Positions 24,168 to 44,398 of a DNA stretch of 64,000 bases are shown here, piece after piece. How positions within the stretch are numbered: position 1 is the first letter of the stretch; each line of letters starts with the position of its first letter. A program made the position numbers and the translations under genes. The notes under the pieces were generated by a model that was not told the origin of the DNA, made no database searches, and worked only from the letters and a program-made list of their open reading frames with translations. The stretch is from Candidatus Iainarchaeum sp. (GTDB lineage Archaea; Iainarchaeota; Iainarchaeia; Iainarchaeales; VGJJ01): contig CP064981.1 of NCBI GenBank assembly GCA_016699555.1, positions 27,456 to 91,455 on the forward strand, read 5' to 3'.

Positions 24168-24242
24168 GGCCCCGTAGCTTAGGCTGGATAGAGCGCCAGG
24201 CTTCGGACCTGGAGGTCGGGGGTTCAAATCCCTCCGGGGTCG
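24168..24242 (+). tRNA. tRNA-Arg (anticodon TCG), no encoded CCA
   Basis: Manual cloverleaf: acceptor GGCCCCG/CGGGGUC, D-arm GCUU..GAGC, anticodon stem CCAGG/CCUGG with loop CUUCGGA (U34 C35 G36), T-arm GGGGG-UUCAAAU-CCCUC, discriminator G. TATA-like tttatag lies about 33 bp upstream. Confidence 0.8.
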
Positions 24243-24252
24243 CTTTTTTATT
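24239..24252. repeat. Left 14-bp direct repeat (TSD) gtcgcttttttatt; overlaps the last 4 nt of the tRNA-Arg and its oligo-T terminator
   Basis: Identical 14-mer at 34627..34640. Confidence 0.8.
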
Positions 24253-24284
24253 GGGATATATACAGCTGCCGCGTTTGAGACTTT
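24253..24284. repeat. Left terminal inverted repeat (32 bp) gggatatatacagctgccgcgtttgagacttt
   Basis: Exact reverse complement present at 34595..34626. Confidence 0.85.
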
Positions 24285-24322
24285 TACAACATAATTATCA
24301 GATTAATAGGGCAGTAACATTG

Positions 24323-25528
24323 CTAAAGAGAATCTGTTGAATTATTTTTGTTTGAGATTGAGTTTTCAATATTCCCTACTGGATTTATTTTATTGTAGTG
24401 GTTCCAATCATTTAGCTGTTGTATAATTCTTTCCGGAATTTTCAAGCCAAGTAGGCGATAAATTATATTTAGAATAAGACAATCAAGAAAATATTCAAAT
24501 CGATTTATTGTGTAAAACGGCATTTTTTTACGTTTAACATTTTCAATTATTATTTTTAGCAGTGGTTCTCCATGACTATAATTATTCCTAAGCTTATACG
24601 TCTCTTTAATTGTTTCATAAAATAGTTCCCATTTTAAATCAGTATATTTCCTAATGAAAACTTCAGCCTTTTTAGTAATTGTATCATCTTTAATAGTTGA
24701 AAGCAAATATTCAACATCTTCATCACTCAACTTAAATTCTTCTTTGTACTTCGTTTTTACATCAGTTCTAATTTTATTTTTGACATTTTCAAAATAGCTT
24801 TTATAATCACGCAGATGGGCGTTAATGATCATTTCAAATAAAGCCCATTGAAAAATAGCCGCGTCATGCGATTCCAAAAATTCTTTATTTCTATTAAACA
24901 AAAAATGAGTAAATAGCATTGAACTAATCCATGCAGAATTTTTTTGATATTTATTATCCCCAATTGCATCAACAAGATTTTCAATTTCTAGTCTTGTCAG
25001 CTCAAAATTTAATTTTTTATATCTCAACTTCCTGGATAAAGGGCTTTCTGTTAGATATCCTGTTTGAGTTCTCTCATCAGCAAATAAATACTTCTTCTTT
25101 GTGCCCCCTACTAGAAATTCAATTAGCTGCATTGATGACACTTCATACATTTCAGCTATGGTTAGATAGAAATCAAGTTCATGATTAGGTGTATCTGCGT
25201 TAATTTTTCGATCGTTAATTAAATCGCCAAAGTTGTGGTTTGGTTCTTTGAAGTATTCTATTAATGGAATTTTAAAAATTAAAAAATACTTGTTGTTTAA
25301 TTCATAAAATAAATCTTGGAATTCTGAAGGGTGACGCAAATCAAAGATACTTTTTGCATTGAAATATTTTTGTTCAGGAACAATTACTTTTTTGATCCCC
25401 AACTCGTTTTTACAATAGTTTTGAAAGCTTTCAACCTTAATTAATTCAAAGAAACGCGTTTTTAGTTCAGGTATTTCATTTACTGAATCAAATTGAGCAA
25501 TTACTTTCACGTCTTTTGCATTAGCCAT
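24323..25528 (-). CDS. Casposon cargo protein, possible HEPN-domain (Abi-like) protein
   Basis: C-terminal KLRNNYSHGEP contains an Rx4H HEPN-type motif; otherwise unrecognised; AT-rich codon usage. Confidence 0.4.
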   Translation of the reverse strand: MANAKDVKVIAQFDSVNEIPELKTRFFELIKVESFQNYCKNELGIKKVIVPEQKYFNAKSIFDLRHPSEFQDLFYELNNKYFLIFKIPLIEYFKEPNHNFGDLINDRKINADTPNHELDFYLTIAEMYEVSSMQLIEFLVGGTKKKYLFADERTQTGYLTESPLSRKLRYKKLNFELTRLEIENLVDAIGDNKYQKNSAWISSMLFTHFLFNRNKEFLESHDAAIFQWALFEMIINAHLRDYKSYFENVKNKIRTDVKTKYKEEFKLSDEDVEYLLSTIKDDTITKKAEVFIRKYTDLKWELFYETIKETYKLRNNYSHGEPLLKIIIENVKRKKMPFYTINRFEYFLDCLILNIIYRLLGLKIPERIIQQLNDWNHYNKINPVGNIENSISNKNNSTDSL

Positions 25529-25534
25529 AAATGG

Positions 25535-26533
25535 TCATGGATATTTTAGGAGTTGATTATTTATTTTTACAGTTGAAATATTGCAGTCAATAATATTAGA
25601 TGGTAAATTACATTGAATAATTGTAGTGGTTTTTGATTTTAGGACTCTATCAAACTCACAACTATTGCTAGCAAATGAATTTTCCATGCTATTTATATCG
25701 ATGCACGTCATCGATAGATGAGTCATAATAGCTTCGTCGTTTGTTGCATTATACAGATATATGTTTGCATTTCCATCTCGCACAATGGAACCACGAAATG
25801 GAAAATCATGGACTGTCAAATCGTAAGGGTTTGAAACGAGTTGACTTACTGGCAACATAGTGAAAATGACAACGAGAATAACCGCATAGACTCTCGAGAT
25901 TGATGTATCTTTTGACAACCCATTGAATATTTGTCGTTCCAAGTAATACAGCAACACTACAAATATTGCAAACTTAAGGAAGTCAGTACTGGTGATGACT
26001 AAATAGATTCCCCAGCCAATGAATCCCATTAGCACCAAAAATAATAGTAGACAGATAATCTTGTGTTTTTCGACGAAGTCATTTGCTCCATCCCCTAAAT
26101 TTTTTTGAACTTTCTTTAATTTAGTCTTGAGCTTTTTCAGATACCCTTCTAGGCTGGCCAAATAAATGATTATTTCAATAATTGCTTGAAGTACACTCGA
26201 TATTTTCTTGAATCCTTTATCTAACTCCTCATAGGTTCCGCGCACAATCAGAAATGCAAGTGAATAAGATAGAGTGAAAAAGTTAGTGAACATGACGATG
26301 AAGTTAAACCCATATAACTGGAATTTGTCATTCAGAATCAGTATTGAAGCTATGAAAACCAGTACGTAGGTCAAACCACCAAGCAAAATTACTTCTTTTG
26401 CAAGGTTTGTGGGGGTCGGCTCATCCTTTTCATTCCATTTCTTCGCCAAGAACAACAAGTATCCTGAAATAATCGTGAAAACGACCACCGAAGGAGTTGA
26501 AAAGATGAAGTTCTGAAAAATATCTTCAAGCAT
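25535..26533 (-). CDS. Casposon cargo polytopic membrane protein
   Basis: Roughly 7 hydrophobic helices; no domain. Confidence 0.45.
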   Translation of the reverse strand: MLEDIFQNFIFSTPSVVVFTIISGYLLFLAKKWNEKDEPTPTNLAKEVILLGGLTYVLVFIASILILNDKFQLYGFNFIVMFTNFFTLSYSLAFLIVRGTYEELDKGFKKISSVLQAIIEIIIYLASLEGYLKKLKTKLKKVQKNLGDGANDFVEKHKIICLLLFLVLMGFIGWGIYLVITSTDFLKFAIFVVLLYYLERQIFNGLSKDTSISRVYAVILVVIFTMLPVSQLVSNPYDLTVHDFPFRGSIVRDGNANIYLYNATNDEAIMTHLSMTCIDINSMENSFASNSCEFDRVLKSKTTTIIQCNLPSNIIDCNISTVKINNQLLKYP

Positions 26534-26578
26534 ATAAATGGTAAAATGGCTTCTTTTTATAATCCGAACATGAAAAAA

Positions 26579-27763
26579 TCATTCTTCGCGGACTTTCCCT
26601 AAGGTCTTTTCATATAACTTGAATATTTTTCCACTTTTTGCATTCTTTTTCATGTAATGCAATGTCCCTTTATGCAAACCATGCTCGTATGCTTTATGAT
26701 AGGGAATTGCCAGAATCTTTTGTCGCAATTCCTCTGAATCAACTCTCTTTAATTCAAACTTAGGATTGGTAAAATCAATCTCTCTCTTTTCAAAATATTT
26801 TGTAAGTTCACGTGCTTTAATGAGTATTACATTATGCCAGCTTGACATGCCTCGATCAAATTCAACTTTATTGTTGAATTGTGTTTCAATTTCCTTTAGT
26901 AGCTTCTTTGCACCACTTGGGCGCAATTTTAGATTGTAGTTTTCGGTTCGAATAAAATCTTTTGCGCTGAAAACTTCTTTTTCAATCGCTGAAATAACTG
27001 CTAAATCAATGAGAAAGCGATACGGTTCTTGTAAGTCGTAAGCCAAAGAGTTATTTCCTGAATGTTTTTCATGCATATATCCAACATGTTGATCAAGTCC
27101 GACTGCATTAATGGCCTTTAGGCATTCAGCTTCTAGAATAGAATAGCCATAGTTGAGTAAGCAATTAATTACATCACCTGCACCGCGTGGCTTCTTTTGA
27201 TATTCTCTTGTTTCAAATTCTAACTTTTCTGGGAATATTTTTGTAAGTTCTTGCCAGTAAAAGGAAGCAACTCTCCCCTCAATCATCATAATCTCAGGTA
27301 TATCTTTTACTTGTTCAATCTTATTCCATTCATTACTGAAATCCGTTTTAATTTCAGGATACTTGGGTTTGAGATAATCTAATACTAATTTTGTCCGTGC
27401 AAACTTGGCATTAATTAAAGCTTTTGAAATTTTGACACGTTCAATATAATTTTCATAAATTTTGTACTGATTAAATTTCGTTTGCACATTGGTGCTTTCA
27501 GGAGGCAATAATGTAGTTAGAAGTTTTCCATTCCAGTCTAAGAAAGAAGCCTGAATGCCATGTTTGACAAGCCAACGAATTGCATCTATGGTGATGTTTC
27601 CGTCTTGGCCATAAATAATCACATTATCCACGTCAATTCTTCGAGGTGAATAAATATATTGAGTAGGTTCTTTTCCAAATTCTGAAAAACCGTCTTTGAC
27701 ATGCAGTTTTGCTTTTTCCACTTTCAGATTAATCCCATGGCCATTAAGTAATAACAATTTCAT
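26579..27763 (-). CDS. cas1: Cas1-family integrase (casposase)
   Basis: Cas1 core MMIEGRVASFYWQ (catalytic Glu), DVINCLLNYGYSILEAECLKAINAVGLDQHVGYMHEK (His), LAYDLQEPYRFLIDLAV (Asp); 394 aa with a C-terminal extension as in casposases; no CRISPR array nearby. Confidence 0.8.
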   Translation of the reverse strand: MKLLLLNGHGINLKVEKAKLHVKDGFSEFGKEPTQYIYSPRRIDVDNVIIYGQDGNITIDAIRWLVKHGIQASFLDWNGKLLTTLLPPESTNVQTKFNQYKIYENYIERVKISKALINAKFARTKLVLDYLKPKYPEIKTDFSNEWNKIEQVKDIPEIMMIEGRVASFYWQELTKIFPEKLEFETREYQKKPRGAGDVINCLLNYGYSILEAECLKAINAVGLDQHVGYMHEKHSGNNSLAYDLQEPYRFLIDLAVISAIEKEVFSAKDFIRTENYNLKLRPSGAKKLLKEIETQFNNKVEFDRGMSSWHNVILIKARELTKYFEKREIDFTNPKFELKRVDSEELRQKILAIPYHKAYEHGLHKGTLHYMKKNAKSGKIFKLYEKTLGKVREE

Positions 27764-28119
27764 GCAACTTCACCCTTCATACTTTCTTTTGTTCTGCTAT
27801 ATGCCGCAGCATCACTTCGAATTGACTTTAACCAACCCCTTTGTTCATCTTCAAGTGTAAGAGAAAATTCGACCAAGGCTTTCTTGTATAGCTCAAGCAC
27901 GCCATGCCAACGTGAGGCTTCGAAGAAAGTACTAAATGCAGTTCTTTGATAGTCTTTTATCACCCATTTTAGCCAATGGATTGCTTTTTCGCTTTCAGCA
28001 GTTGCAAAAAGCATTAGGATTAGTTTTCCATATGCTTTGAATATGGATGCCTCGTCTACTTTTTTATCAAACTCGTTAAGTATTTTGTCAAGATTTTTTT
28101 GGACGTATCCCAGCGTCAA
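27760..28119 (-). CDS. Casposon hypothetical protein
   Basis: 119-aa ORF, ATGA-type overlap with cas1. Confidence 0.4.
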   Translation of the reverse strand: MTLGYVQKNLDKILNEFDKKVDEASIFKAYGKLILMLFATAESEKAIHWLKWVIKDYQRTAFSTFFEASRWHGVLELYKKALVEFSLTLEDEQRGWLKSIRSDAAAYSRTKESMKGEVA

Positions 28120-28582
28120 GGTGATTCATTAGTAAAATGGCGGTTGTTTCTAAAAGTTTTTCATTTTTGGTGCGCGCGACTATTCGTTCAACCTTTTCCA
28201 ATGTTTCCCAATTTAATTTTACGCGTTGTACATCTCCTAACTCCTCTAAAGCAACTAATTGTTTCTTTTCATCATCTGACGCAAGTATATCAAGAATTTT
28301 CGAGTAAAATTCGTTTTCATTTGGTAAAGTTGAAAGTGCATAAAAAATTGCATTTTCTCTTTTTTCTTTTATTCCATAAGCTTGGAAGTCATTGAATTTT
28401 ATTCGTATAATCTTCTTGTCAACATCACGCAATTCTTGGATTGCTTTGTAAATTGAGGGTTTTGATCTGCCGAGCGGCATTGCATCGCCAATTTTGCCTA
28501 TTTTTTCGAAGATTTGGTCTGAAGACTGAATCTTCTCTTTCGCCAGTAAGTCGATGATTTCTTGTTTTATGCTATCACGCAT
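28088..28582 (-). CDS. Casposon putative winged-HTH DNA-binding protein
   Basis: N-terminal SIYKAIQELRDVDKKIIRIKF helix-turn-helix-like segment. Confidence 0.4.
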   Translation of the reverse strand: MRDSIKQEIIDLLAKEKIQSSDQIFEKIGKIGDAMPLGRSKPSIYKAIQELRDVDKKIIRIKFNDFQAYGIKEKRENAIFYALSTLPNENEFYSKILDILASDDEKKQLVALEELGDVQRVKLNWETLEKVERIVARTKNEKLLETTAILLMNHLDAGIRPKKS

Positions 28583-28621
28583 GCTCTCACTTCGGTCTCT
28601 TTTGCTCTCACAATTAAGTAT

Positions 28622-28666
28622 AATTACTATAACTTATGCTATCAATTACTATATAATAGTTGCTAT
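28622..28666. promoter_or_regulatory. Divergent AT-rich intergenic region with two imperfect direct repeats (aattactata..tgctat, about 22 bp apart) between the HTH and RHH genes
   Basis: aattactata at 28622 and 28644, tgctat at 28637 and 28661; candidate operator/TATA elements. Confidence 0.3.
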
Positions 28667-28700
28667 ATTCCAGGTCTGCTCCAATGTATGTGGTGATCCC

Positions 28701-28871
28701 ATGAGTGGACGTAAACTTGTCATAACCTTGAATCCAAGCCTTAAACGTGGACTGGAGGAGGCATCAAAGCGCAGGAAATGCTCGCAAGCTGAAATTGTGC
28801 GTGGCCTCCTCTATCAAAATCTTGCCCCTTACTTGAAAGAGGTGGAAGCTGATGCCCAAACGCTTCTCTAA
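28701..28871 (+). CDS. Ribbon-helix-helix (CopG-like) DNA-binding protein
   Basis: MSGRKLVITLNPSLKRGLEEASKRRKCSQAEIVRGLLYQ is the classic RHH beta-strand plus two helices. Start chosen at ATG 28701, not the ORF-track start. Confidence 0.45.
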   Translation: MSGRKLVITLNPSLKRGLEEASKRRKCSQAEIVRGLLYQNLAPYLKEVEADAQTLL

Positions 28872-29484
28872 ACACTACAAAACTTTTTCCGACTGGAAAA
28901 AAGGACGGAAACTAACGAAATATAGTAAGAAAATAATTGAAAATCGAGCCATATTTCCAAAATCTACCTTGAAGAGGCTCAGGACTGGAATCTCCAACTT
29001 TTCCACAAAAAAATGGAATGTATTGAATTCCACTCAAAAAGTGCATCGAACAAATGCATTGAACACACTTTCTGAAATACGGAAAGGAAACTCACTCCTA
29101 AAGACGCTTAAAAAATATGGTTATTCATTAGAAAGAATAAAAGAACACTTAGGAAAAACGATTCATTTCCAAAACAATAAGTGGATTAGTAGATCACGCG
29201 ATTCAATTGAACGTTCAATGGTTATTTATGAAAATGGAAAACGAAAAGCAATTCTTGTTAATGATTCAAAGACTGCATCACGAATTGGAGAGTATTATAA
29301 TTCAGTAAAGAAGTTTTTACAAACAGGAAACGAGAAGGAATTACATAAAATAAACACAAAAATCATCGACTCAAATGGTAACACTCATTACTTAGAAACA
29401 AATCCTAAAAAGATTTTAGAAATTGAAGAAGCAAAGGAAGAACCCGAATTCACAGAAATATATTCAGAGGAAGATTCTCCATGA
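28852..29484 (+). CDS. Casposon basic Lys/Ser-rich protein immediately upstream of HNH and PolB (function unknown)
   Basis: 210-aa ORF overlapping the RHH gene stop and the HNH gene start (operon). Confidence 0.45.
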   Translation: MPKRFSKHYKTFSDWKKGRKLTKYSKKIIENRAIFPKSTLKRLRTGISNFSTKKWNVLNSTQKVHRTNALNTLSEIRKGNSLLKTLKKYGYSLERIKEHLGKTIHFQNNKWISRSRDSIERSMVIYENGKRKAILVNDSKTASRIGEYYNSVKKFLQTGNEKELHKINTKIIDSNGNTHYLETNPKKILEIEEAKEEPEFTEIYSEEDSP

Positions 29485-29813
29485 TGAAGTGTTTGCTGTG
29501 CATTGAAACTGAAGAAACAGTCCCACTTCGATTTGAAATGCACCACCTATCTGGTAGAAAATATTCTGACGAAACAGTTCCACTATGCCCAAACTGTCAC
29601 GCTAAAATAACAAAAATTCAAAACAAATTTCCTCCAAAGATACGTTCACAAAAGAATCGCAAAGACACATTAATTTTCAGTATTACAAGCACAACCGCGC
29701 TCATGAAAACGGGGGCTGAAAACGGCCTTCGTATGCTAAAAGAATTAACGGAGCTGATACAAAATGACTCAAAAAATAGCCGTGAGAATCTTGTCGAACA
29801 AGAAAAACAATGA
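29481..29813 (+). CDS. HNH endonuclease
   Basis: CLLC...HH...VPLCPNCH is the HNH zinc/ββα-Me motif. Confidence 0.7.
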   Translation: MMKCLLCIETEETVPLRFEMHHLSGRKYSDETVPLCPNCHAKITKIQNKFPPKIRSQKNRKDTLIFSITSTTALMKTGAENGLRMLKELTELIQNDSKNSRENLVEQEKQ

Positions 29814-32370
29814 AAAACAAGAGTATATTCCAAAAATTGTCTCTCCATATCAAGGCGTACTCGTTTTTGATTGTGAAACAACAACAGATGCAGTTCAAAA
29901 CCTAAAATTTGGCTCATACCAGTATCGTGTTAATGACATCATTCAAGATATTGGCATTTTTTACAACCCTACTGAGGTAACTGCAGAAGAACTAAACTAC
30001 CTTCAAACTGCTAGCAGTCAAAAACTAATCCAACTGTATACACGCGAACAATTTGTTGCCAAACTAGCTGACTACGCCCTGAAGATACGGGCACTATGTA
30101 TTGGACACAACTTGGTATTTGATATTTCGCGATTATGTGTTGGAACGGGATATTGTAGAGGCGCGTACAACAGCGGATTTTCACTCAAACTATCGGAAAA
30201 CAAAAGTATTCCTCGCATTAAAACAACGCGTATCAATGAGCGAAAAGTATTATTACGATTTGGAAAAGCATTAGATGGCACGAACTTTGGAGGCCATTTT
30301 TTAGATACCCAAACGTTAGCCTCGGCATTATTGGACACTAAACACATTTCATTGAACGCGTTGGCAAAGGAGCTTGGAATCGATGAGCAAAAATTAGAAG
30401 TAGAAAAACATGGAATGATTACACCGCATTATATTGACTATAATTTGAATGATGTGATGCTTACTTATTTGGTTTTTGCAGAACTAAAGAAAAAATATGA
30501 AGAATACGGTCTCAGCTTACCGATAACAAAAGTCATTTCAGGTGCATCCATTGGAAAAGCGTTCCTGCGAAAAATGGGAATAAAGTCTTTCCTTGAGCAA
30601 AACAAAACATTCCCCATGGAAGTATTAGGGCAATGCATGTCAGCCTATTTTGGTGGGCGTTGCGAGGTAAAAATGCGAAAAACGCCTGTACGAACAACAG
30701 TATTAGACTTCACAAGTATGTACCCAACTGTTTGTCATCTAATGAATCTTCAACGATTCATGCTAGCTAAAAGAATTGATACACAAAAAATAAATGTACA
30801 GAAACTATTAGAAGAATTGACCCCTGAAAAATTATTTGATCCAAAAACATGGCCATCACTTCTCATTTTATGCAAAATAAAACCAAACAAGGACTGTTTA
30901 CCCGTACGTAGCGACTATGGTGGAAAAACGCTCAACGTGGGAGTCAATTATTTTACATCAAGTGAATCTTTTTACTATTGGTTGCCAGACTTAGTATATA
31001 GCAAGTTCATAACTGGAAAAACCTCAGTAATTGAGGAAGCTTTGGAATTTGTTCCTGTTGATGTTCAGGAAACGGTAAAACCAATAAGTGTCTTTGATGT
31101 GGAATTTAATCCGTTGAAACATGACTTTATTCATAATCTGGTTCTACAACGAAACAAATTGAAAAAAGTGAATCCCGTTCAGGCGCAGGGATTAAAAATT
31201 TTGGCTAATGCCACTTCTTATGGCATTTTTGTCGAATTAAACCCAGAAAAAGAACCATCCCCACTAACTGTTTATTCGAGAAAAGTTTTTGAAACAAATT
31301 CTATACATGAGCAAGCAGGTGAATTCTTCAATCCGATTGTTGGCGGACTGATTGTTTCGGGGTCAAGGTTGCTATTAGGAATGATAGAGGTTGAGCTAGC
31401 AAAAATTGGCAAGACCCATTATGCGTGTGACACCGATTCAATGTTCGTTCCGCCTGAAACGGCTGATTACTTGCAAGAAAAATTTCAACCTTTATCACCT
31501 TATCAAGGACATATATATTTACACGAGAAGCAGGCAGATCAAACTCCTATATATTTACTAAAGAAGGAGTACGAAAACGTGTGGTTCTATGGTGTGAGTT
31601 CCAAAAGATATGTTCTATTCGAGAAAAAGGGCACGAAACTAAAGATTCTCGACCAAAAAGGAAAGAAAGGATACAAGCTACATGGACTTGGGTATATCCT
31701 CAATCCCTTTGGCAAAGATCCTGATTGGCATAAACAATTCTGGGAAGATGGACTGAAACTGCACTACAATCAGCTATCAGAACAGGATATCATTGCAAAG
31801 TATGGACAATACTATTGTATATCACAATTAACAGTCTCCAGTTGGGATGCTTATCGCCGATTTCGATACTTCAACAAAGGAAAACCTTTTCGAGAGCAGA
31901 TAAAACCGTTCAATTTTATGCTATTGGGGTTTGGTCAACAAAATGATGTCAAACCATTAGCACCTTACACGAAAAACTATCAAGCAATCGTTCACGAACC
32001 ATTTATTGACTACAAAACAGGCAAAACTTTGATTGGGATTGAATATTGGCAAAACTTGGCAGATGTATTTTTCAATTACTTTAATCATCCCGAAGCAAAA
32101 ATGGATGGTACTGTTGGCTTGCTAAGACTTAAGTACGTGACTTCTGACTTGACTGCTTATATAGGGAAAGAAGGGCGCGATATTGACACGCAAATCATGC
32201 GTAAAAGTCCAATTACGGCCGTTATTCCTCAAAAGGATCTGCATACATATGTATGTATGTTGACGAAAGAAGAGGCAAAGCAACTTCATATTTCACGAGC
32301 AACTTTTTATCGCTTGAAAAAGAATCCAGAGAAACTTTCTGTTGCCATAATACAAAAATTGTTACATTAA
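29764..32370 (+). CDS. polB: Family B DNA polymerase with 3'-5' exonuclease motifs (casposon PolB, likely protein-primed type)
   Basis: Exo I VFDCETT, Exo II YNLNDVMLTY, motif A LDFTSMYPTV, motif B KILANATSYGIF, motif C YACDTDSMFV. Confidence 0.85.
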   Translation: MTQKIAVRILSNKKNNEKQEYIPKIVSPYQGVLVFDCETTTDAVQNLKFGSYQYRVNDIIQDIGIFYNPTEVTAEELNYLQTASSQKLIQLYTREQFVAKLADYALKIRALCIGHNLVFDISRLCVGTGYCRGAYNSGFSLKLSENKSIPRIKTTRINERKVLLRFGKALDGTNFGGHFLDTQTLASALLDTKHISLNALAKELGIDEQKLEVEKHGMITPHYIDYNLNDVMLTYLVFAELKKKYEEYGLSLPITKVISGASIGKAFLRKMGIKSFLEQNKTFPMEVLGQCMSAYFGGRCEVKMRKTPVRTTVLDFTSMYPTVCHLMNLQRFMLAKRIDTQKINVQKLLEELTPEKLFDPKTWPSLLILCKIKPNKDCLPVRSDYGGKTLNVGVNYFTSSESFYYWLPDLVYSKFITGKTSVIEEALEFVPVDVQETVKPISVFDVEFNPLKHDFIHNLVLQRNKLKKVNPVQAQGLKILANATSYGIFVELNPEKEPSPLTVYSRKVFETNSIHEQAGEFFNPIVGGLIVSGSRLLLGMIEVELAKIGKTHYACDTDSMFVPPETADYLQEKFQPLSPYQGHIYLHEKQADQTPIYLLKKEYENVWFYGVSSKRYVLFEKKGTKLKILDQKGKKGYKLHGLGYILNPFGKDPDWHKQFWEDGLKLHYNQLSEQDIIAKYGQYYCISQLTVSSWDAYRRFRYFNKGKPFREQIKPFNFMLLGFGQQNDVKPLAPYTKNYQAIVHEPFIDYKTGKTLIGIEYWQNLADVFFNYFNHPEAKMDGTVGLLRLKYVTSDLTAYIGKEGRDIDTQIMRKSPITAVIPQKDLHTYVCMLTKEEAKQLHISRATFYRLKKNPEKLSVAIIQKLLH

Positions 32371-33065
32371 TTTTCAATTTCCTTATCTATTATAGTTATT
32401 ATCTCGTCCAAGTAACGAATAAGCTGATTAAGTGATTCTTCAGTAGCATCGACACCTAACTTTTCTTTATTAGCAATTAATTCCAATTTATCTTTTGCAT
32501 TTTGAAATCTTATTTTTACGCCTAAGAAAATGTCTTTTGCTTCTTCATAGTCAACTTTTGTCGGATTATTGACAAGCAGTATCTTCTTCCCGCCAGTTAC
32601 AAAATCTTCTAAACCTTTCACAACTTCCTCTTGAATATCTAAACTCAATTGGAGATCCGTACGAAGTTGCTGATCATATGTGAGCACTTCTTTTGTTTTG
32701 CCTAAAAGCCACCGCATCTCTGATAATTCCGCCTTTGCTAAAGGAATAATTGCATCAGCTTCATCAAAATGGTTGAATTCTATGTAAGCAAAAATTACTC
32801 CAAGATAATATGCAAAAGAGGCGTGGCGTCTTTCATAATCAATACTAATTTCTTTTACTTTTTCTAATTCTATATTATAATTATTTATTCCTGCTTCTAA
32901 ATTTTGGATTTGCTCTTTTTGGGACTGTGTTTCAAAATAAAGATTTCCTGCAGCAATCAATAGAAATAATAGTATCACTCCGTATATCCCTTGAGTTGAG
33001 GGGTTTTGATGATTTTGCATAGTGCTTGATCTCGTATGGTTTTTTTCGTCCATTGTAACGTTCAC
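32367..33065 (-). CDS. Casposon membrane-anchored coiled-coil protein
   Basis: N-terminal TM helix (IYGVILLFLLIAAGNLYF) plus coiled coil. Confidence 0.4.
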   Translation of the reverse strand: MNVTMDEKNHTRSSTMQNHQNPSTQGIYGVILLFLLIAAGNLYFETQSQKEQIQNLEAGINNYNIELEKVKEISIDYERRHASFAYYLGVIFAYIEFNHFDEADAIIPLAKAELSEMRWLLGKTKEVLTYDQQLRTDLQLSLDIQEEVVKGLEDFVTGGKKILLVNNPTKVDYEEAKDIFLGVKIRFQNAKDKLELIANKEKLGVDATEESLNQLIRYLDEIITIIDKEIEN

Positions 33066-33135
33066 CCAGGCTCAAAACTACGTTCGTTACGTTGATGTTA
33101 CGCTACTACTTATTAAGGGGTTATGCACCCCTTAT

Positions 33136-33387
33136 ATGTACGAACTTCTGAGCTACATTCGAAGAAGCTCAATAAAACGCAAAATTCTACAAAATTTACA
33201 GGAAGCTAAAACTCCAACAGATTTGAAGAAGGCTCTAGGGGTTCATAGGGAAAGTATCTCAAGGGCACTATTAGAGTTGGAGGAAAGAGGACTAGTTGAA
33301 TGTCTGACCCCAGACCAACCAAATTATCGCTATTACAAAATTACAGAAAAAGGAGATAAACTGTGTAAGCAGCTGAAAAATTACTGA
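33136..33387 (+). CDS. Small winged-HTH transcriptional regulator (PadR/ArsR-like)
   Basis: MYELLSYIRRSSIKRKILQNL...RALLELEERGLVEC; start at the internal ATG 33136. Confidence 0.45.
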   Translation: MYELLSYIRRSSIKRKILQNLQEAKTPTDLKKALGVHRESISRALLELEERGLVECLTPDQPNYRYYKITEKGDKLCKQLKNY

Positions 33388-34508
33388 ATTAGAACATGAT
33401 CCTCATCTAGTGAAGAACTCCAAACTTCGCTTTTCCATTTTTTCTTCCTTTTTGTTGGCATGTAAAAATTGTGGCTATCTTCCTCGATTTGTTTTAGCAT
33501 TTTTCTAATATTCTTCTCAAGTTCTGTTTTTGGTTTATACTTATATATTTTGCCATAAGCATTTGGGATCTTTTTAGCAATTTTTTTAGCCCACTCCACT
33601 TTCGGAATTTCAATTTTGGGGTCATATACCTTGATTGTTGCTAAAATATCTTTTTTTGACTTATTAGTTCTCTTAATTTCCTTAATGCTAATTTCTTTAT
33701 TGATTAGTTCTGATAACAACGGAATTGAAAAATCAACTGGCACCGAATCTTCAAAATTTTTCTTCCAAATAATAACTCTTCGCTTATCAATTAAACCAGC
33801 AGACACTAAATCATTTACAAATGAAATTACAGATTTATCATAATCAAGAACTAAGTAGTATTGAATGCCAGGAATCCTATATCTTCCAAGCAGTTCTTTT
33901 ATGGCTTGCTTCTTTACAGCGTCCTTGCCTTGTAAATTGATAATCTCATGGTCTCGAAATAGATTGAATTGATTTTTGTTAAAAAGAATTTCAAATGCTT
34001 CTTTCTCCGACTCGCCTTCAACCAGAATATAAAATTTAGGCTTTAAATCTTTTTGAAGTTTACCTAAACTAACAGTAAACTTGCTTACACCTTGAAGTAA
34101 TAAACCACTCCAGACTAAATGATTTGTTAATTGCATACCCTCATGATAATGCATCCTATCGTCAGTAGTGTAGTTATCTACCCACCTTACAGAAGCCCAG
34201 TGTACTTCAATAAATGAAAGAGATAATTTTACCAGTATTTCAACGTAATACTGATTTTGCAAATCAAATAGATATTGCACTGAATCAATAAAATTGTTTA
34301 AAAGTGTTTTTAGTTTTGGACAACTATCCATTGTCCCCCTATGTCCAAATACACAACTTCTCCCTCTTTTTGGATAACATGCGGGAAGATGACCTCCCAG
34401 GTGGGTTTTTAGATCTTCTAAAGTGTTAACATTTCTGAAGTCTAACTCTTGATTCATTGCCATCCAAAAAATTTTCAGCGACTTCGCATTGACAGAAACA
34501 TCTTTCAT
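33381..34508 (-). CDS. Casposon cargo protein with a C-terminal Toprim-like domain (OLD/DUF4435-like)
   Basis: FYILVEGESEKEAF (Toprim Glu) followed about 55 aa later by YYLVLDYDKSV (DxD); N-terminal Cys/His-rich segment. Confidence 0.4.
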   Translation of the reverse strand: MKDVSVNAKSLKIFWMAMNQELDFRNVNTLEDLKTHLGGHLPACYPKRGRSCVFGHRGTMDSCPKLKTLLNNFIDSVQYLFDLQNQYYVEILVKLSLSFIEVHWASVRWVDNYTTDDRMHYHEGMQLTNHLVWSGLLLQGVSKFTVSLGKLQKDLKPKFYILVEGESEKEAFEILFNKNQFNLFRDHEIINLQGKDAVKKQAIKELLGRYRIPGIQYYLVLDYDKSVISFVNDLVSAGLIDKRRVIIWKKNFEDSVPVDFSIPLLSELINKEISIKEIKRTNKSKKDILATIKVYDPKIEIPKVEWAKKIAKKIPNAYGKIYKYKPKTELEKNIRKMLKQIEEDSHNFYMPTKRKKKWKSEVWSSSLDEDHVLIQ

Positions 34509-34594
34509 TTAACAAGCAACTGTTTTTCTAATTTAATCTTATATGGTATTGATGAGAAAAAAATAGCCCCACACCATTACCAAATTATGTTGTG

Positions 34595-34626
34595 AAAGTC
34601 TCAAACGCGGCAGCTGTATATATCCC
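34595..34626. repeat. Right terminal inverted repeat (32 bp), exact reverse complement of the left TIR
   Basis: aaagtctcaaacgcggcagctgtatatatccc. Confidence 0.85.
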
Positions 34627-34640
34627 GTCGCTTTTTTATT
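34627..34640. repeat. Right 14-bp direct repeat (TSD) gtcgcttttttatt
   Basis: Identical to 24239..24252. Confidence 0.8.
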
Positions 34641-34661: not shown

Positions 34662-35618
34662 ATGCCAGGACGAAAACCACTTCGTAGCAAGAAATCAAGC
34701 ACTGGATTACCCAAAAGAAGAACAAAACCTCAAATTGTCACCCCGGTAATAACATCCGATGGAAGTATTTTGATCCACCCATCGCATTATCAAAGTAGTC
34801 ATTTTGGCAGCAGACTAACACTGCTTCAAAAAAGACTGTTGGCCACACAAGAAAGGCTGATCGCCGAAGACAGTAGGCACGACAACCACCTCATTGCCAT
34901 GCGCCATGCCGACGAGTGGCACCATCAACGAGCCCATCATGACGGGGATAGCACATATATCGCCAATGATCGTATGCGAGTGGCGAAACATTATGCCCCG
35001 ATTCACACACTCTTAGAACTCGTCGGCGGGAGAGGATTAAAGGGAAAGAGCATCCTGCATGTGGCTGGGTCGACGGGAGTGTATGCGAGATATCTACGCG
35101 ATCAGCTCCAGATGCGACCGGTCGTACTCGACATCGACCGCCTGTCCCTTCACGATGCGCATCATGAAAGACAGATTAAGACAGTGGTGCGCGCGAATGC
35201 CATTATAGAAAAAAAACATACGGGCCGATACATCATTCCCAGAGGAAAACGGATTGCAGTCCCGGAATATGAAACCACGCGCTTGCCATTCGCCGACAAA
35301 AGCTTCAAATTCGTGATAAGCGATCACTTCCTGTTTGCGAACTATCATCGCGGCGTAGGCGGATTCGAGTCCCACGGGGGATCAATCGAAAGAAGCGAGG
35401 AAACGCTTCCCGAACTCAATCGTGTCCTGGAAAAAGGAGGATACGCGATCATCGGGTCGATCCATGGGCAGAGCTTGTCCGATATTAGAAGATATCAAGT
35501 CGGACATACCATCCATGGCTTCGTAGTTGAAAGGGCATACGATGGATATCTTTCCCCCGTTGCGAAAGGAAACCCGCCTATTTTCATCATCCTGCGCAAA
35601 GTAAGGGAAGCGGAATGA
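34662..35618 (+). CDS. Class I SAM-dependent methyltransferase
   Basis: ILHVAGSTGVYARYL (motif I-like), LPFADKSFKFVIS, LNRVLEKGGYAII. Confidence 0.55.
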   Translation: MPGRKPLRSKKSSTGLPKRRTKPQIVTPVITSDGSILIHPSHYQSSHFGSRLTLLQKRLLATQERLIAEDSRHDNHLIAMRHADEWHHQRAHHDGDSTYIANDRMRVAKHYAPIHTLLELVGGRGLKGKSILHVAGSTGVYARYLRDQLQMRPVVLDIDRLSLHDAHHERQIKTVVRANAIIEKKHTGRYIIPRGKRIAVPEYETTRLPFADKSFKFVISDHFLFANYHRGVGGFESHGGSIERSEETLPELNRVLEKGGYAIIGSIHGQSLSDIRRYQVGHTIHGFVVERAYDGYLSPVAKGNPPIFIILRKVREAE

Positions 35619-39233: not shown

Positions 39234-40826
39234 TTGCATGCCTGCATGGTGCGATTAACCTCTTTCCCCGAAGGAAAATGGCTGCACGAAACGCCCATTT
39301 CACGCATTTACGCCGGCTTTCCTTTTCCCATTTATGCGCTGCAAGGGCATGCGTTTTCGTTGGAGCACGGCAAGCTCGCCAACGTCCTCATCCACGCGCT
39401 CGCGCATCGACAGACGGAAGCGGTGTGGAGCAGGGAGATACCCCCATCCATCAGCAAATCGTTCGCGCATGCATTCCAGTCGCGCGTAGTGGGCCTGACG
39501 GAAGCCGGAGAGATGATCGACAAGATTCCCACCCCCCATGAACGCGAGCGATTGGCGCAAGCATTCGGCGAAGTGTTGGAGGAATTCATCCCCGAGATGA
39601 GTGACCCCGGACCATTCGTGGATTATGTGCTCGATCACGGCGTTGGATTGTTCGAGCTCAGCGCGTTGCTGCGCGATCCCGAGCTGAATGAGATCATGGT
39701 GAATGGCAACAACACCCATGTCTTCGTGGAACACCAAAAGATGGGGATGTGCCAGACGAATATCTTCATCGAAGAGAACGACCCCCAGTCCGCGCGCATG
39801 ATCCTCAAGGCCGCACGCTTTTCGGGAAGAAACTTTTCGGAGCAGGAACCGCTATTGGATGCGCGTCTGCCGGATGGGAACCGCTTGAACGCGACATTCG
39901 AAACGATTACACCGCAAGGACACAGCATGACCATCCGGAAGTTCCGCTATGACACGCTTTCGCTCGTGGACCTCGTCATGAACCGCACCCTCAGCGAGGA
40001 AATGGCGGCATATCTGTGGTTGATGGTCGAAGGATTCGGCAGCAACCCCATGAACATCATCGTCTCCGGCGGGAGCGGGAGCGGAAAGACCACGCTCATG
40101 AATGCATTAGGCGCCTGCATCCCCTATCGCGAGCGCATCATCTCCATCGAAGACACGCTGGAGCTGCAATTCCCCTTACGCGAGAACTGGGTGCAGATGG
40201 AATCGAAACCCGCGATCGTGCGCCAATCCACCCACGAAAGGTTGGGAATGGATGAGCTGCTCAAGAACTCCCTCCGCATGCGACCGGACCGCGTCATCGT
40301 GGGAGAGGTGCGCGGCATGGAGGCACAGACCTTGTTCGCGGCCATGGACACGGGACACCAAGGGAGCATGGGCACGCTGCACGCCAATTCCCCCAGCGAA
40401 ACGCTCTTGCGCTTGAGCTCGGAGCCCATGAATGTGCCCAAGACATTGCTGCCGCTGCTCAACATCATCATCGTCACCCAAAAAATCCACTTCCCAGGGG
40501 AAGGGACAAAACGACGCATCGCGCAGATCGCGGAGATATCCCACTTGGAGCGGGAGCCCTTGCTCTCGAACGTGTTCGAGCGCAAGCCGGAAGCCGACAC
40601 GGTATTGCGCACCGACACGCCATCGCACTGCGTCCAGGTGCTCGCGGATGCCACGGGGAAACCACGCAAGGTCATCCAGCAAGAACTGGTCGTGCGCCAG
40701 CGCATCCTCGAATGGATGCTCCGGCAGGGAATCCATGCATATGCGGAGGTGGAAAAGATCCTCCAACAGTATGGAGTCAATCCCGTCGGAGTATTGGAGC
40801 GCGTCCAAGGGCAAGCGATGCGCTAG
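39234..40826 (+). CDS. Second type II/IV secretion ATPase (FlaI/PilB family)
   Basis: Walker A IIVSGGSGSGKTTLMNALG; RPDRVIVGEVRG; GHQGSMGTLHANS. Confidence 0.8.
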   Translation: MHACMVRLTSFPEGKWLHETPISRIYAGFPFPIYALQGHAFSLEHGKLANVLIHALAHRQTEAVWSREIPPSISKSFAHAFQSRVVGLTEAGEMIDKIPTPHERERLAQAFGEVLEEFIPEMSDPGPFVDYVLDHGVGLFELSALLRDPELNEIMVNGNNTHVFVEHQKMGMCQTNIFIEENDPQSARMILKAARFSGRNFSEQEPLLDARLPDGNRLNATFETITPQGHSMTIRKFRYDTLSLVDLVMNRTLSEEMAAYLWLMVEGFGSNPMNIIVSGGSGSGKTTLMNALGACIPYRERIISIEDTLELQFPLRENWVQMESKPAIVRQSTHERLGMDELLKNSLRMRPDRVIVGEVRGMEAQTLFAAMDTGHQGSMGTLHANSPSETLLRLSSEPMNVPKTLLPLLNIIIVTQKIHFPGEGTKRRIAQIAEISHLEREPLLSNVFERKPEADTVLRTDTPSHCVQVLADATGKPRKVIQQELVVRQRILEWMLRQGIHAYAEVEKILQQYGVNPVGVLERVQGQAMR

Positions 40827-41768: not shown

Positions 41769-43358
41769 ATGTCGCAGACTTTACAGGTCCTGGCCGAGCG
41801 ATTGTATGGGGAAATCCAAGCCGGCAAGATCCAGACCCCCAAGCAATTAGACGTTCGCAAGCGCCAGCTCTCGGAAGGATTGCAGTTACAGAACCTCCCT
41901 ACGAATCCCGATCTCCTACCCATTATCCAGCAGGCGTGCGGGCCTTTATCGCAAGAGCAGCAGCAACTCTTCTCGATTAAGCCCGTGCGCAACCTCTCCG
42001 GGGTGGCAGTGCTGGCGGCAATGGTGAAACCTCATACTTGCCCCCATGGCACATGCGTCTATTGCCCCAAGGGAATCCATCACCCCGCTCCTCCAGCCTA
42101 TACCGGAGATGAGCCCGCTGCCCAGCGGGGGTATCGCAATAACTTCGATTCTTTTTTGCAAGTGACCTCGCGCATCAAGCAATTGCAGGCCACGGGACAG
42201 AGCACGGAAAAGTGCGAACTCATCATCATGGGCGGGACATTCCTCTCGATGCCCGAGGACTACCAATACGAATTCATGCAAGGATGTTTAGATGGCATTT
42301 CGGGACAGCGACATACGACGATCCAAGAATCCGTTGCGGCATGCGAAACATCTCCTAACCGCGTGATTGGGATTACGATGGAAACGCGCCCGGACGTGGC
42401 TAAGCTCTCCGACATCCAGCGCATGCTCACGTGGGGAAGCACGCGCGTAGAGATGGGAGTGCAGTCGGTGTACGATGATGTGCTCCAGAAGCTCAACCGC
42501 CAACACACCGTGCAAACCACCATCGACTCGACGCAGCGCTTGAAGGATTCATGCTTGAAGGTGGGGTATCACATGATGTCCAAGCTTCCCCACTCTACGA
42601 TCGAACGCGATCTCGCGGCGCACCTGGAAATATTCACCAATCCCGCGTTCCGCCCGGACATGATCAAGTTCTATCCGCTTGCGGTCGTGCAAAACACCGG
42701 GGTCTATCAGATGTGGAAGCGCGGGGAGTATGAGGAGATGTCCATGGAAGAGGCTATCCGGTTCTACTCCAAGCTCAAACCCCAAATCCCCGAATGGGTG
42801 CGCGTGATGCGCGTGCAGCGCGACATCCCATCGCAGAATATCTCCGCCGGCGTGAAGAAAACGAATTTGCGCCAAGAAGTGCAACGCCACATGAAAGAAT
42901 TAGGCATCAAGTGCCGCTGCATCCGCTGCCGCGAAGTAGGATTCAAGCACCAGAACGAAGGGGTTTGGCCCGTGAAAGTGGAATTAGTTACACGCGCTTA
43001 TGAAGCATCGCAAGGGAAAGAGTATTTCATTTCCGCGGAAGACGTGGAACAGGATATCCTGCTGGGATTCACGCGCTTGCGTATCCCCCATCAACCTACT
43101 CTCCCCGAATTAGAGGATTCCGCTTACATCCGTGAATTACATGTGTATGGGCAAAGCATCCCCATCGGCGAGCAAAAAGAAAAGAGCAGCCAACACAAGG
43201 GATGGGGAAAGAAACTGCTTGCGGAAGCCGAACGCATCGCCAAAGAAGAGCACGGCTTGGATGCCATGAACATCATCGCCGGCATCGGCGTGAGAGAGTA
43301 CTACAAGAAATTGGGATATACGCAGAATGGCGCATTCGTGAAGAAGGAACTGCGCTAA
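41769..43358 (+). CDS. elp3: Elp3-like radical-SAM/GNAT tRNA modification enzyme
   Basis: CPHGTCVYCP radical-SAM cysteine cluster; C-terminal GNAT (HKGWGKKLLAEAERIA). Confidence 0.8.
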   Translation: MSQTLQVLAERLYGEIQAGKIQTPKQLDVRKRQLSEGLQLQNLPTNPDLLPIIQQACGPLSQEQQQLFSIKPVRNLSGVAVLAAMVKPHTCPHGTCVYCPKGIHHPAPPAYTGDEPAAQRGYRNNFDSFLQVTSRIKQLQATGQSTEKCELIIMGGTFLSMPEDYQYEFMQGCLDGISGQRHTTIQESVAACETSPNRVIGITMETRPDVAKLSDIQRMLTWGSTRVEMGVQSVYDDVLQKLNRQHTVQTTIDSTQRLKDSCLKVGYHMMSKLPHSTIERDLAAHLEIFTNPAFRPDMIKFYPLAVVQNTGVYQMWKRGEYEEMSMEEAIRFYSKLKPQIPEWVRVMRVQRDIPSQNISAGVKKTNLRQEVQRHMKELGIKCRCIRCREVGFKHQNEGVWPVKVELVTRAYEASQGKEYFISAEDVEQDILLGFTRLRIPHQPTLPELEDSAYIRELHVYGQSIPIGEQKEKSSQHKGWGKKLLAEAERIAKEEHGLDAMNIIAGIGVREYYKKLGYTQNGAFVKKELR

Positions 43359-43396
43359 CCCAAGCATTAAAATGAGAAATCGCTTTCACTTCATGC

Positions 43397-43765
43397 ATGC
43401 TCGAACCCATATTCATCGCCATTATCGCCGTCCTGGCGATTGTGTGCATTTTCTTATATCGCCGCACCCAAGAATTATGGGATTCCCTGCAACAGACCCA
43501 ATTCTCCAAGCAAAGCCTTTCGGTGAAATATGGCAAGACCTCGGAGCAATGGCTACCGCTTTCCGAACGCTTCCCCTATCCTAAAGAAAAATTCCGCTTC
43601 TTGGGGAATCCCATTGACGGGATCGCTTTCTTGGACAACAAAATCGTCTTTTGCGAATTCAAGACCAATAAATCCCAACTCAGCGAAACGCAAAAGCGCA
43701 TCCGCGATCTCGTGGAAGAAAAACAAGTGGAATGGATGGAAATGCGGGTGGAAGAGAATGGATAA
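43397..43765 (+). CDS. Membrane-anchored predicted PD-(D/E)XK nuclease-fold protein
   Basis: N-terminal TM helix; PIDGIAF...VFCEFKTNKSQLSETQKRI resembles a D...ExK restriction-endonuclease-like core. Confidence 0.4.
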   Translation: MLEPIFIAIIAVLAIVCIFLYRRTQELWDSLQQTQFSKQSLSVKYGKTSEQWLPLSERFPYPKEKFRFLGNPIDGIAFLDNKIVFCEFKTNKSQLSETQKRIRDLVEEKQVEWMEMRVEENG

Positions 43766-43785
43766 TACTCTAATTATTTTTCGTT

Positions 43786-44145
43786 TTACTTAATATAATT
43801 CACTTGCGGCATTTTCTCGAATGCTTTATCTCCCGTGACGAATGAACCACCATTCCTGATTGCATGGGCATACCCAAATGCATCAAAAAAAGAAAGATTC
43901 TGATTTTTGTGCTTGTGTTTGAATTTTACCGCTTCGAGTAACGTGGCTAAATCACTGGACTGGACAAATGGCAAATATTTTTTCACCCAAAATTCGGCTT
44001 CGGACTCGCTCCGATCGCGAAGAATTACTGAATAGAATTCAGCTAGGGTCAATTCGCATATCGCAAAAGGATAATCCACTATTTTCTCATAGTTTTTACT
44101 CCCTTTTGCGATTTCGACTAATGCATAGGTGTCCAAGAATTGCAT
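43786..44145 (-). CDS. vapC: PIN-domain toxin (VapC-like)
   Basis: MQFLDTYALVEI...FFDAFGYAHAIRNGGSFVTGDKAF gives PIN acidic residues. Confidence 0.65.
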   Translation of the reverse strand: MQFLDTYALVEIAKGSKNYEKIVDYPFAICELTLAEFYSVILRDRSESEAEFWVKKYLPFVQSSDLATLLEAVKFKHKHKNQNLSFFDAFGYAHAIRNGGSFVTGDKAFEKMPQVNYIK

Positions 44146-44149
44146 GCAA

Positions 44150-44398
44150 TCACCAAAACTTTGATTCGTTCTTTCTCGATTCTTTAAGCAATTCTGCAGT
44201 CGGTTTAGAGAATTTCATCGCCCCAAACATCTCTCTCAAGGGATTCGATTTCTTCTGGATCGTTAACATAATTTCATCATGCTCTTTGAGGCCCAATTTA
44301 TTGAGTTCTTTTTTGGATAATAACAATCCCATAGAATTTCCCCACTTGCGCAGTTTTCCAATCATCACGTCTGAAGCCATACTAGAACGTATATACAA
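44150..44398 (-). CDS. vapB: AbrB/MazE-type antitoxin (VapB-like)
   Basis: KLRKWGNSMGLLLSKKEL swapped-hairpin motif; 4-bp gap to vapC. Confidence 0.6.
   Translation of the reverse strand: MYIRSSMASDVMIGKLRKWGNSMGLLLSKKELNKLGLKEHDEIMLTIQKKSNPLREMFGAMKFSKPTAELLKESRKNESKFW

Follow-up and report, generated by a model that had tools for sequence, protein, structure and literature searches.

Casposons are self-replicating transposons that are moved by a Cas1 enzyme, the casposase, and the CRISPR adaptation machinery is presumed to descend from them. To our knowledge, few casposases have been characterised. Elements of family 2 are defined by genes for Cas1 and a family-B DNA polymerase (PolB) as well as a nuclease of the HNH type, together with terminal inverted repeats (TIRs) and a target-site duplication (TSD) located right at the 3' end of a tRNA gene; casposons take the last 4-7 nt of such genes as their target and leave them unaltered (PMC4046053). 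Their mobility in vivo has been demonstrated (PMC10359463). In the casposons of Methanosarcina mazei, the TSD is 14 bp long and opens with the final 4 bp of tRNA-Leu, the element ends in the 6opm structure read 5'-TATATCCC, and the casposase works as a tetramer (PMC6977970). Here we analysed a 64-kb stretch of contig CP064981.1 from a Candidatus Iainarchaeum metagenome-assembled genome (MAG), referred to throughout as the window, in which a pair of exact direct repeats encloses a pair of inverted repeats at the 3' end of a tRNA gene. We believe, with a probability of about 0.92, that these repeats are the borders of a 10,374-bp family-2 casposon in an Iainarchaeum-like DPANN archaeon, where it follows the tRNA-Arg(TCG) gene. 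This kind of element is already known; the novelty lies in a DPANN host, in tRNA-Arg as the target, and in the changed residues with which the casposase would read that target.

Borders of the element and its tRNA junction

The outermost repeat is the 14-mer GTCGCTTTTTTATT (= gtcgcttttttatt), which is read in exact copies at 24239-24252 and 34627-34640 of the + strand. Even when one mismatch is allowed, it occurs at only these two places in the 64 kb, where 0.04 occurrences are expected and none of 100 shuffles reached two. The direct repeat is exactly 14 bp and does not extend on either side: it is preceded by G on the left versus C on the right, and followed by G on the left versus T on the right. 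A reading of the sequence alone (the sequence-only reading) had proposed that the 14-mer is a TSD, and we agree, as the copies are exact at both places and the 14-bp length and 4-nt offset are those of characterised casposons (PMC6977970). The same reading placed a perfect 32-nt TIR directly inside both copies, which we confirmed to the base: gggatatatacagctgccgcgtttgagacttt (= GGGATATATACAGCTGCCGCGTTTGAGACTTT) occupies 24253-24284, and 34595-34626 carries its reverse complement without a mismatch. With up to three mismatches, the 32-mer is found within the window at the element ends only (0.00 expected). Beyond these 32 nt, the inverted repeat runs on to 44 nt with one mismatch (43/44, 98%), with the left TIR at 24253-24296 (+), beginning GGGATATATACA, and the right TIR at 34583-34626 (-), with the transferred 3' end ...TATATCCC. 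The ends of the casposon therefore read GGGATATA... and ...TATATCCC-3', and the interval between the direct repeats is 24253-34626, or 10.4 kb. The GC content of this interval is 34.7%, compared with 51.5% and 52.2% in the two flanks.

The tRNA-Arg(TCG) gene, which we regard as the integration target, lies on the + strand at 24168-24243 according to ARAGORN and at 24168-24242 according to Rfam (RF00005, 62.8 bits). The 14-mer starts at 24239, 4 nt before the 3' end of the gene as placed by Rfam (24242; 24243 in ARAGORN), so that the last four nucleotides of the tRNA, GTCG at 24239-24242, are the first four of the TSD. The target thus overlaps the tRNA gene within the last 4-7 nt and leaves it unaltered, as described for casposons, and the TIRs are flanked by the duplication. 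With the Rfam end, the 14-mer comprises the last three acceptor-stem bases and the discriminator base, followed by a C and a T-rich tract. The left end of the element is joined 10 bp downstream of the end of tRNA-Arg. These details refine three statements of the sequence-only reading. It had the duplication contain the last 4 nt of the acceptor stem plus an oligo-T run; four tRNA bases and a T-rich tract are indeed present, but by the Rfam end they are three stem bases and the discriminator rather than four stem bases. It also held that insertion regenerates an intact tRNA. The gene is left intact, but nothing had to be regenerated, as no bases of the mature tRNA were lost and the left TSD copy is the original DNA. 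Finally, it spoke of an attachment site defined to the base pair; the borders are exact, but this is a target site of the transposase type, and the element has no integrase of the kind that the term implies.

Core genes and assignment to family 2

The casposase is encoded at 26579-27763 (-) as a Cas1-family protein of 394 amino acids (aa), which matches Pfam Cas_Cas1 (PF01867, 3.7e-63) and TIGR00287 (9.8e-62). Its residues 1-391 align with the M. mazei casposase in PDB entry 6opm (E 1.2e-141), and its catalytic residues E162, H231, and E246 align with E162, H232, and E247 of that structure. This catalytic E/H/E is kept in the window protein and in all 131 aligned homologs. The Cas1 domain models stop at about residue 293-326, while the alignment continues to residue 391 through the C-terminal region of the M. 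mazei protein, its helix-turn-helix (HTH) domain. The protein is therefore a Cas1 integrase with an intact triad and a C-terminal extension beyond CRISPR Cas1, in which the HTH is assigned by alignment only.

Three further core genes follow on the + strand. A conserved protein of 210 aa (28852-29484) has orthologs 31-49% identical at the same position in eight related loci (L002-L006, L029, L030, and L032; see below), and it had no family or structure match. Next to it is a putative HNH-type nuclease of 110 aa (29481-29813), with the pattern CxxC...HH...CxNCH...N invariant in 8 orthologs and weak but concordant matches to a PHROG HNH endonuclease (8.6e-4), a PADLOC endonuclease (4e-4), and McrA (6ghc, 0.018). 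The largest gene (29764-32370) encodes a family-B DNA polymerase of 868 aa that appears to belong to the divergent PolB_CDTDS type. This group was described by Kazlauskas et al. and contains the polymerase of the Aciduliprofundum boonei casposon (PMC7544198). The translation of the window gene contains the full set of exonuclease and polymerase motifs of family B, namely DCETT, HNLVFD, YNLND, DFTSMYPT, KILANATSYG, and YACDTDSM (motif C). A direct scan gave no Pfam PolB match, and the single sequence retrieved only noise from the PDB; a profile of the window protein and six orthologs matched archaeal PolB structures only (best 2e-6), a PHROG DNA polymerase was matched at 5.1e-9, and the ortholog in L030 passes Pfam DNA_pol_B with 38.7 bits against a cutoff of 23. 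The protein is about 40% identical to those of its relatives over about 850 aa, and a sub-threshold HTH_26 match lies at its C-terminus (residues 838-866, 20.3 bits against a cutoff of 22). Family-2 polymerases are described as RNA-primed-like or PolB_CDTDS in type, as opposed to protein-primed, and as carrying a C-terminal HTH; of these traits, the window protein shows the CDTDS motif C, and its profile matches are to archaeal replicative PolBs.

The order Cas1, 210-aa protein, HNH, and PolB is kept in Methanolobus casposons and in L029, L030, and L032. Because Cas1, PolB, HNH, TIRs, and a TSD at a tRNA 3' end together match the published definition (PMC4046053), we assign the element, to which the sequence-only reading had given no name, to family 2. 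Family 2 was first described from Euryarchaeota, and the host here is a Candidatus Iainarchaeum MAG; this range is a described distribution rather than a defining property. The family has also been described as having a pair of HTH proteins, one with HEAT repeats. The 210-aa protein is common to the relatives and has no detectable HTH, and a 273-aa gene upstream of cas1, discussed below, is a positional counterpart only. Among the 12 element open reading frames (ORFs) scanned, there was no match to Cas2 or other Cas families, and the direct-repeat listing of 23-36 kb contained no multi-copy repeat family, although no dedicated CRISPR array search was made. For annotation, the "CRISPR-associated endonuclease Cas1" label in this MAG denotes a transposase and should not be taken as evidence of CRISPR immunity, and 24253-34626 is mobile DNA.

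The host and the locus in its relatives

The genes on the flanks of the element are archaeal and include those for DnaG, HerA, Rad50, aEF-1beta, the archaeal CCA-adding enzyme, Elp3, and NreA. For both Rad50 and the casposase, a 100% identical protein is on record under "Candidatus Iainarchaeum archaeon", and because the further named relatives of Rad50 are Diapherotrites or Micrarchaeota, we regard the host as a DPANN archaeon. The succession Rad50, aEF-1beta, Zn-ribbon gene, tRNA-Arg is also present in three related contigs, with Rad50 proteins that are 90%, 84%, and 73% identical. In two contigs (L024 and L025) the tRNA-Arg gene is followed by a short spacer and the next gene begins about 28 bp on, without a casposon, and the third (L027) likewise has no casposon there. 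Aligned with the window, these contigs are nearly the same across the tRNA (fully so in L024) as far as GGGGTCGCTT (GGGGTCGTTT in L027), after which they diverge; gene order resumes at an SDR gene. As the relatives diverge after GGGGTCGCTT, the sequence to the right of the site before insertion is deduced from the duplication alone, and an empty or excised site would presumably read ...CCGGGGTCGCTTTTTTATT joined directly to TCTAGAATATTTC. Exact-pattern metagenome scans with the tRNA 3' end plus TSD and with the tRNA 3' half gave no empty site, and a viral collection gave no match to the TIR (pattern scan) or to Cas1 (protein search).

The gene on the right of the casposon (34662-35618, +) encodes 318 aa, has a host-like GC content of 49.6%, and gives a weak Methyltransf_11 match. 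At this place the host relatives carry a different gene of 358 aa, StiP/PRTase-like, so the locus downstream of tRNA-Arg varies irrespective of the casposon.

Comparison with described casposons and CRISPR integration

The family-2 casposons of M. mazei, such as MetMaz1FA1A3-C2, share much with the window element. The casposases align over their full length, including the C-terminal extension and the catalytic E/H/E; the eight terminal bases ...TATATCCC-3' are identical; the 14-bp TSD starts 4 bp before the tRNA 3' end and runs on into AT-rich DNA; both have PolB and HNH genes, and the size of the window element lies within the family range of 6-16 kb. The 14-bp TSD and the ...TATATCCC-3' ends are features of the M. 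mazei-type subgroup, which the window element therefore shows. The differences lie in the target and in its recognition. The target is tRNA-Arg(TCG) rather than tRNA-Leu, the TSD starts with GTCG rather than the conserved CGCA, CGGG rather than CCCT stands directly before the cut, and K190/K191 replace R191/R192; reading of a CGCA start by these arginines is a trait of the subgroup and does not define the family. The host also differs (DPANN versus methanogen), and the cargo genes are unlike.

AciBoo-C1 of A. boonei, which we set against the window by its published descriptions, is likewise a family-2 element with a polymerase of the "CDTDS" group and a TSD of 14-15 bp, and its preferred target is the 3' end of a tRNA-Pro gene. 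It differs in the tRNA and the recognition motifs, and its host is a thermophilic euryarchaeon. The integration of spacers by CRISPR Cas1-Cas2 relies on a homologous fold and chemistry, with staggered joining beside a recognised upstream sequence and duplication of the staggered segment (PMC6977970). In contrast, the window element has no Cas2 match, the inserted DNA is a 10-kb element, and the duplication is 14 bp rather than a repeat of 25-50 bp.

Alternative explanations

The 3' ends of tRNA genes are classic targets of proviruses and plasmids that are inserted by tyrosine or serine recombinases, and the tRNA-Leu of M. mazei serves both casposons and tyrosine-integrase elements (PMC4779613). 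The window element could accordingly be such an integrative element at a tRNA attachment site, with the 14-mer as its att core, and the wording of the sequence-only reading agrees with this. None of the 12 element ORFs, however, matched a recombinase or integrase family in Pfam, NCBIfam, PHROGs, or PADLOC. The long perfect TIRs are absent from att-site elements, the direct repeat overlaps the tRNA by only 4 nt, and its length and position equal those of casposase products exactly, which makes a recombinase-borne element extremely improbable. An identity as an insertion sequence or DDE transposon was also rejected, as there was no family match to a DDE, HUH, or serine transposase in the element ORFs (Pfam, NCBIfam) and the only integrase-like enzyme is Cas1. 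It is nearly as improbable that assembly fused the low-GC casposon of a different organism from the same sample into the DPANN contig. The sequence is indeed a MAG, the GC gap between element and flanks is 17 points, and many of the nearest named relatives of the element are in methanogens. Yet both junctions lie within one contig with host gene order continuing on either side, the public record has Cas1 and Rad50 on one contig of 1,048,949 bp, and a chimeric join would not yield a 14-bp duplication of the host tRNA at the position and length typical of the family.

Several observations weigh against our explanation of the locus. By sequence, neither of the two HTH core proteins that family 2 is described as having can be recognised; the PolB and HNH calls rest on motifs, weak profile matches, and orthologs rather than on strong direct matches; there is a single casposon copy in the 64-kb window; and the gene at a core position is frameshifted in this copy, through decay or an assembly error. 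The comparison with the uninterrupted locus, which the sequence-only reading had suggested as a check, gave tRNA-Arg without the element but no base-for-base empty allele, as the relatives diverge right after GGGGTCGCTT and their next gene encodes 358 aa rather than 318 aa. Some of these points would also fit a genuine casposon insertion that is now a dead relic and no longer mobile. The 1-nt frameshift splits the gene directly upstream of cas1, the element is seen once only, the nearest known casposase is no more than 67% identical and hence gives no sign of recent spread, and many described casposons are decayed (PMC4779613). Against this, the TSD is perfect, the TIR is perfect over 32 nt and matches at 43 of 44, the Cas1, PolB, HNH, and 210-aa ORFs are full length with intact catalytic residues, and the GC content of the element has not drifted from 34.7% to the host value of 52%. 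The frameshift falls within a homopolymer, and the gene is intact in an independently assembled copy of the element, so that an assembly error is at least as likely. We therefore consider a dead relic unlikely, though clearly less so than the two explanations above, and retain a family-2 casposon bounded by the TSD and TIRs as the explanation of the locus.

The split gene occupies 27760-28582 (-) and appears in the window as two ORFs, orf164 (28088-28582) and orf119 (27760-28119). It matches the position of a 266-326-aa gene upstream of cas1 in L029, L030, and L032, and comparison with L001, an independent Logan contig (SRR11674035), showed it to be an intact gene of 273 aa. A run of seven A in the window, compared with six in L001, breaks the frame at about 28094-28100. 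The two sequences are 99.98% identical over 4.37 kb, with one 1-nt indel in 4,371 nt, and the frameshift reflects an assembly error or else a new inactivating mutation. The 273-aa protein has no detected sequence similarity to its positional counterparts and no family match. Judging by its exact TSD, perfect 32-nt TIR, and foreign GC content, this casposon copy looks freshly inserted, and it may be active now or have been so recently.

Proposed insertion mechanism

By homology with the enzymes of M. mazei and A. boonei (PMC6977970, PMC5137440, PMC10359463), we infer the following course of insertion. A tetramer of the casposase would bind both element ends, each ...TATATCCC-3'OH, and would recognise the 3' part of the tRNA-Arg gene. 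Both 3'-OH ends would then be joined to the two target strands 14 bp apart, with the top-strand joint at G24238/G24239, 4 nt before the tRNA 3' end. Host repair would fill the two 14-nt gaps and thereby create the direct repeat, with the tRNA and its T-run remaining intact and contiguous on the left. The family-B polymerase of the element would copy the element, and the HNH nuclease and the 210-aa protein are presumed to be accessory factors.

Related casposons in methanogens and DPANN archaea

A genome scan identified casposases 49-56% identical to that of the window in Methanolobus and Methanosalsum (loci L002-L007). In addition to this Cas1 identity, the PolB proteins are about 40% and the 210-aa and HNH proteins 33-41% identical, the gene order is kept, the TIRs begin GGG(A/T)TATA, and the TSDs are 14 bp. 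These elements differ from the window element in standing behind tRNA-Leu(TAA), in having TSDs of the CGCA type, and in carrying arginines at the two loop residues (RR) where the window casposase has lysines (KK); the exception is L002, with TR and a CGTA-type TSD. L003 and L005 are intact, with exact 14-bp TSDs (CGCATCGCTTCTAA and CGCACCTGCGCATT, respectively), TIRs that begin GGGATATA, and tRNA-Leu(TAA) as the target.

A large protein database contained closer casposases, the nearest of which are 67% and 63% identical. The latter is encoded by L029 (GCA_964602245.1), an intact element of 11,159 bp behind tRNA-Gln(TTG) with the exact 14-bp TSD GCTACTTTTTATTA. Of the casposases with a fully delimited element, that of L029 is the closest, and the element shares with that of the window the first 12 nt of the TIR, the KK loop, CGGG just upstream of the cut, and the 4-nt geometry. 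All three intact relatives (L003, L005, and L029) thus have an exact 14-bp TSD that begins 4 nt before the tRNA 3' end and TIRs that start GGGATATA. In L032, with a casposase 58% identical, tRNA-Ile(GAT) is followed by CTCATTTTAAGTTT and then by GGGATATATATAACG; its TSD is inferred, as the right end lies outside the fetched DNA. This locus shares the KK loop, TIR start, and geometry with the window and differs in its target tRNA. At every junction compared, the tRNA ends 4 nt beyond the cut; the comparison comprises the delimited ends and leaves aside L028, L030, and the right end of L032.

For L029, the named near relatives of the host marker aIF5B beside the element are all Woesearchaeota or Nanoarchaeota, and a casposase 54% identical, which is annotated as belonging to a Woesearchaeota MAG, has the same core gene order. 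These loci extend casposons to DPANN archaea, with Iainarchaeota and Woesearchaeota-like genomes as hosts. Full-text literature searches found no description of casposons in DPANN, only incidental co-mentions, although such descriptions may exist, and we found no report of tRNA-Arg as a casposon target in the casposon literature searched. The DPANN contigs of the relatives are themselves low in GC (26-38%). The Woesearchaeota-like hosts of L029, L030, and L032 are at about 30-35% GC, and those elements do not stand out by composition, unlike the window element. At 34.7%, the window element is near these low-GC DPANN contigs and far from its own host at 52%, which points to a recent arrival from a donor of lower GC content. 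A distance tree of 131 casposases resolved no clade around the window protein (bootstrap 1/50), and the loop "EYQK[KR]P" is therefore treated as a shared feature only, with no claim to a clade.

Methanolobus and Methanoregula loci (L003 14041-14070; L004 3930-19831; L006; L021) contain tandem casposons or solo TIRs with a shared 14-bp TSD between them. For example, the right TSD of L003, CGCATCGCTTCTAA, directly abuts another TIR, GGGATATAGG. These arrangements resemble the tandem arrays described for Methanosarcina. The element of L002 (3777-12661, Methanolobus sp. WCC5) has an apparent imperfect 14-bp TSD, GTTTAAAACGTACG / GTTTAAAGCGTACG, with the CGTA start on the other strand and a TR casposase; there is no tRNA at its junction, and the only tRNA found in the locus is tRNA-Val at 997-1070, about 2.7 kb from the element end.

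Target specificity

In the 6opm structure, the only base-specific contacts to the target are made by R191 and R192, which contact the guanines opposite the two cytosines of CGCA. This motif is critical for the M. mazei enzyme, mutation of the bases at -4 to -1 also impaired it, and an upstream sequence of the T-arm type is required for integration in vitro (mut12-17) (PMC6977970). We compared the loop residues with the TSD starts, known or inferred, across the related elements. Those with an RR loop (M. mazei, L003, L005, L004a, L004b, and L007) all have TSDs that start with CGCA, while the KK loop occurs with GTCG in the window, GCTA in L029, and CTCA (inferred) in L032; the TR loop of L002 occurs with CGTA. 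All three KK-type targets carry CGGG at -4 to -1, compared with CCCT or CCCC in the tRNA-Leu targets. A 16-nt T-arm stretch upstream of the cut, GGGTTCAAATCCCTCC, is identical between the tRNA-Arg of the window and the tRNA-Leu targets of Methanolobus. This covariation of loop and target comes from nine related casposases whose TSD motifs are known or inferred and which are not phylogenetically independent.

From these comparisons, the switch of target to tRNA-Arg, with GTCG in place of CGCA, would appear to be linked to the lysines that replace the two target-reading arginines. A broader and more speculative scenario, which we hold to be possible but on balance doubtful, is that there is a DPANN-borne group of family-2 casposons with a re-targeted casposase (RR to KK) that inserts 4 nt short of the end of any tRNA with CGGG at the start of its acceptor 3' strand, and that the GC gap of the window element reflects a recent inter-phylum transfer, with a DPANN cell and an archaeal partner as the possible parties. 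If the re-targeting is true, it would provide a natural "specificity code" for Cas1-family integrases, and together with the transfer it would mean that casposons cross phylum boundaries into ultra-small archaea. Either way, the element offers a clean natural variant for testing the site choice of Cas1-type integrases, and alongside its relatives at tRNA-Gln and tRNA-Ile it yields a testable hypothesis, namely that residues 190/191 of the loop and the 4 bp to each side of the cut govern this choice.

Cargo genes

The remaining ORFs of the element are mostly passengers without a family. On the left, a 401-aa ORF (24323-25528, -) and a 332-aa ORF that looks hydrophobic by eye (25535-26533, -) had no match in Pfam, NCBIfam, PADLOC, or PHROGs. 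The first is 100% identical over the 358 residues present on L001, where the contig end cuts the gene, and the second is 100% identical there. A small ORF of up to 105 aa (28554-28871, +), whose C-terminal half looks ribbon-helix-helix-like by eye, had no Pfam, PADLOC, or PHROG match and one marginal tblastn match in L005 (8.8e-4). To the right of PolB, a 232-aa ORF (32367-33065, -) gave sub-threshold Pfam and NCBIfam matches only. It is followed by a winged-helix transcription regulator of 121 aa (33022-33387, +), either cargo or a regulator of the element, which matches Pfam HVO_A0261_N (7.2e-9) and HTH_45 as well as a PHROG transcriptional regulator (7.9e-10) and has a homolog in L028. The last ORF, of 375 aa (33381-34508, -), has a weak signal of an OLD-type TOPRIM or AbiLii-like protein (Pfam OLD-like_TOPRIM, 1.1e-4, just below the cutoff; PADLOC AbiLii, 1.7e-4) and could be a defence- or nuclease-related passenger gene, with signals below the curated thresholds. 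We do not claim a defence function for the cargo, as PADLOC gave weak AbiLii/TOPRIM and generic HTH matches only.

Other features of the window

Elsewhere in the window, the GC content falls to 43-46% at 43000-45000, between the Elp3 and Pelota-like genes, in a region with short ORFs only (up to 147 aa). A very long ORF of 2,396 aa (54024-61214, -) matches Pfam only with residues 1828-1898, as an NPCBM-associated NEW3 domain; it probably encodes a giant protein on the surface of the DPANN host. There are also two FlaI/T2SSE-type secretion ATPase genes, at 692-2632 (-) and 39234-40826 (+), one of them in the conserved block to the right of the casposon, which may be part of pilus or archaellum-like systems of the DPANN host.

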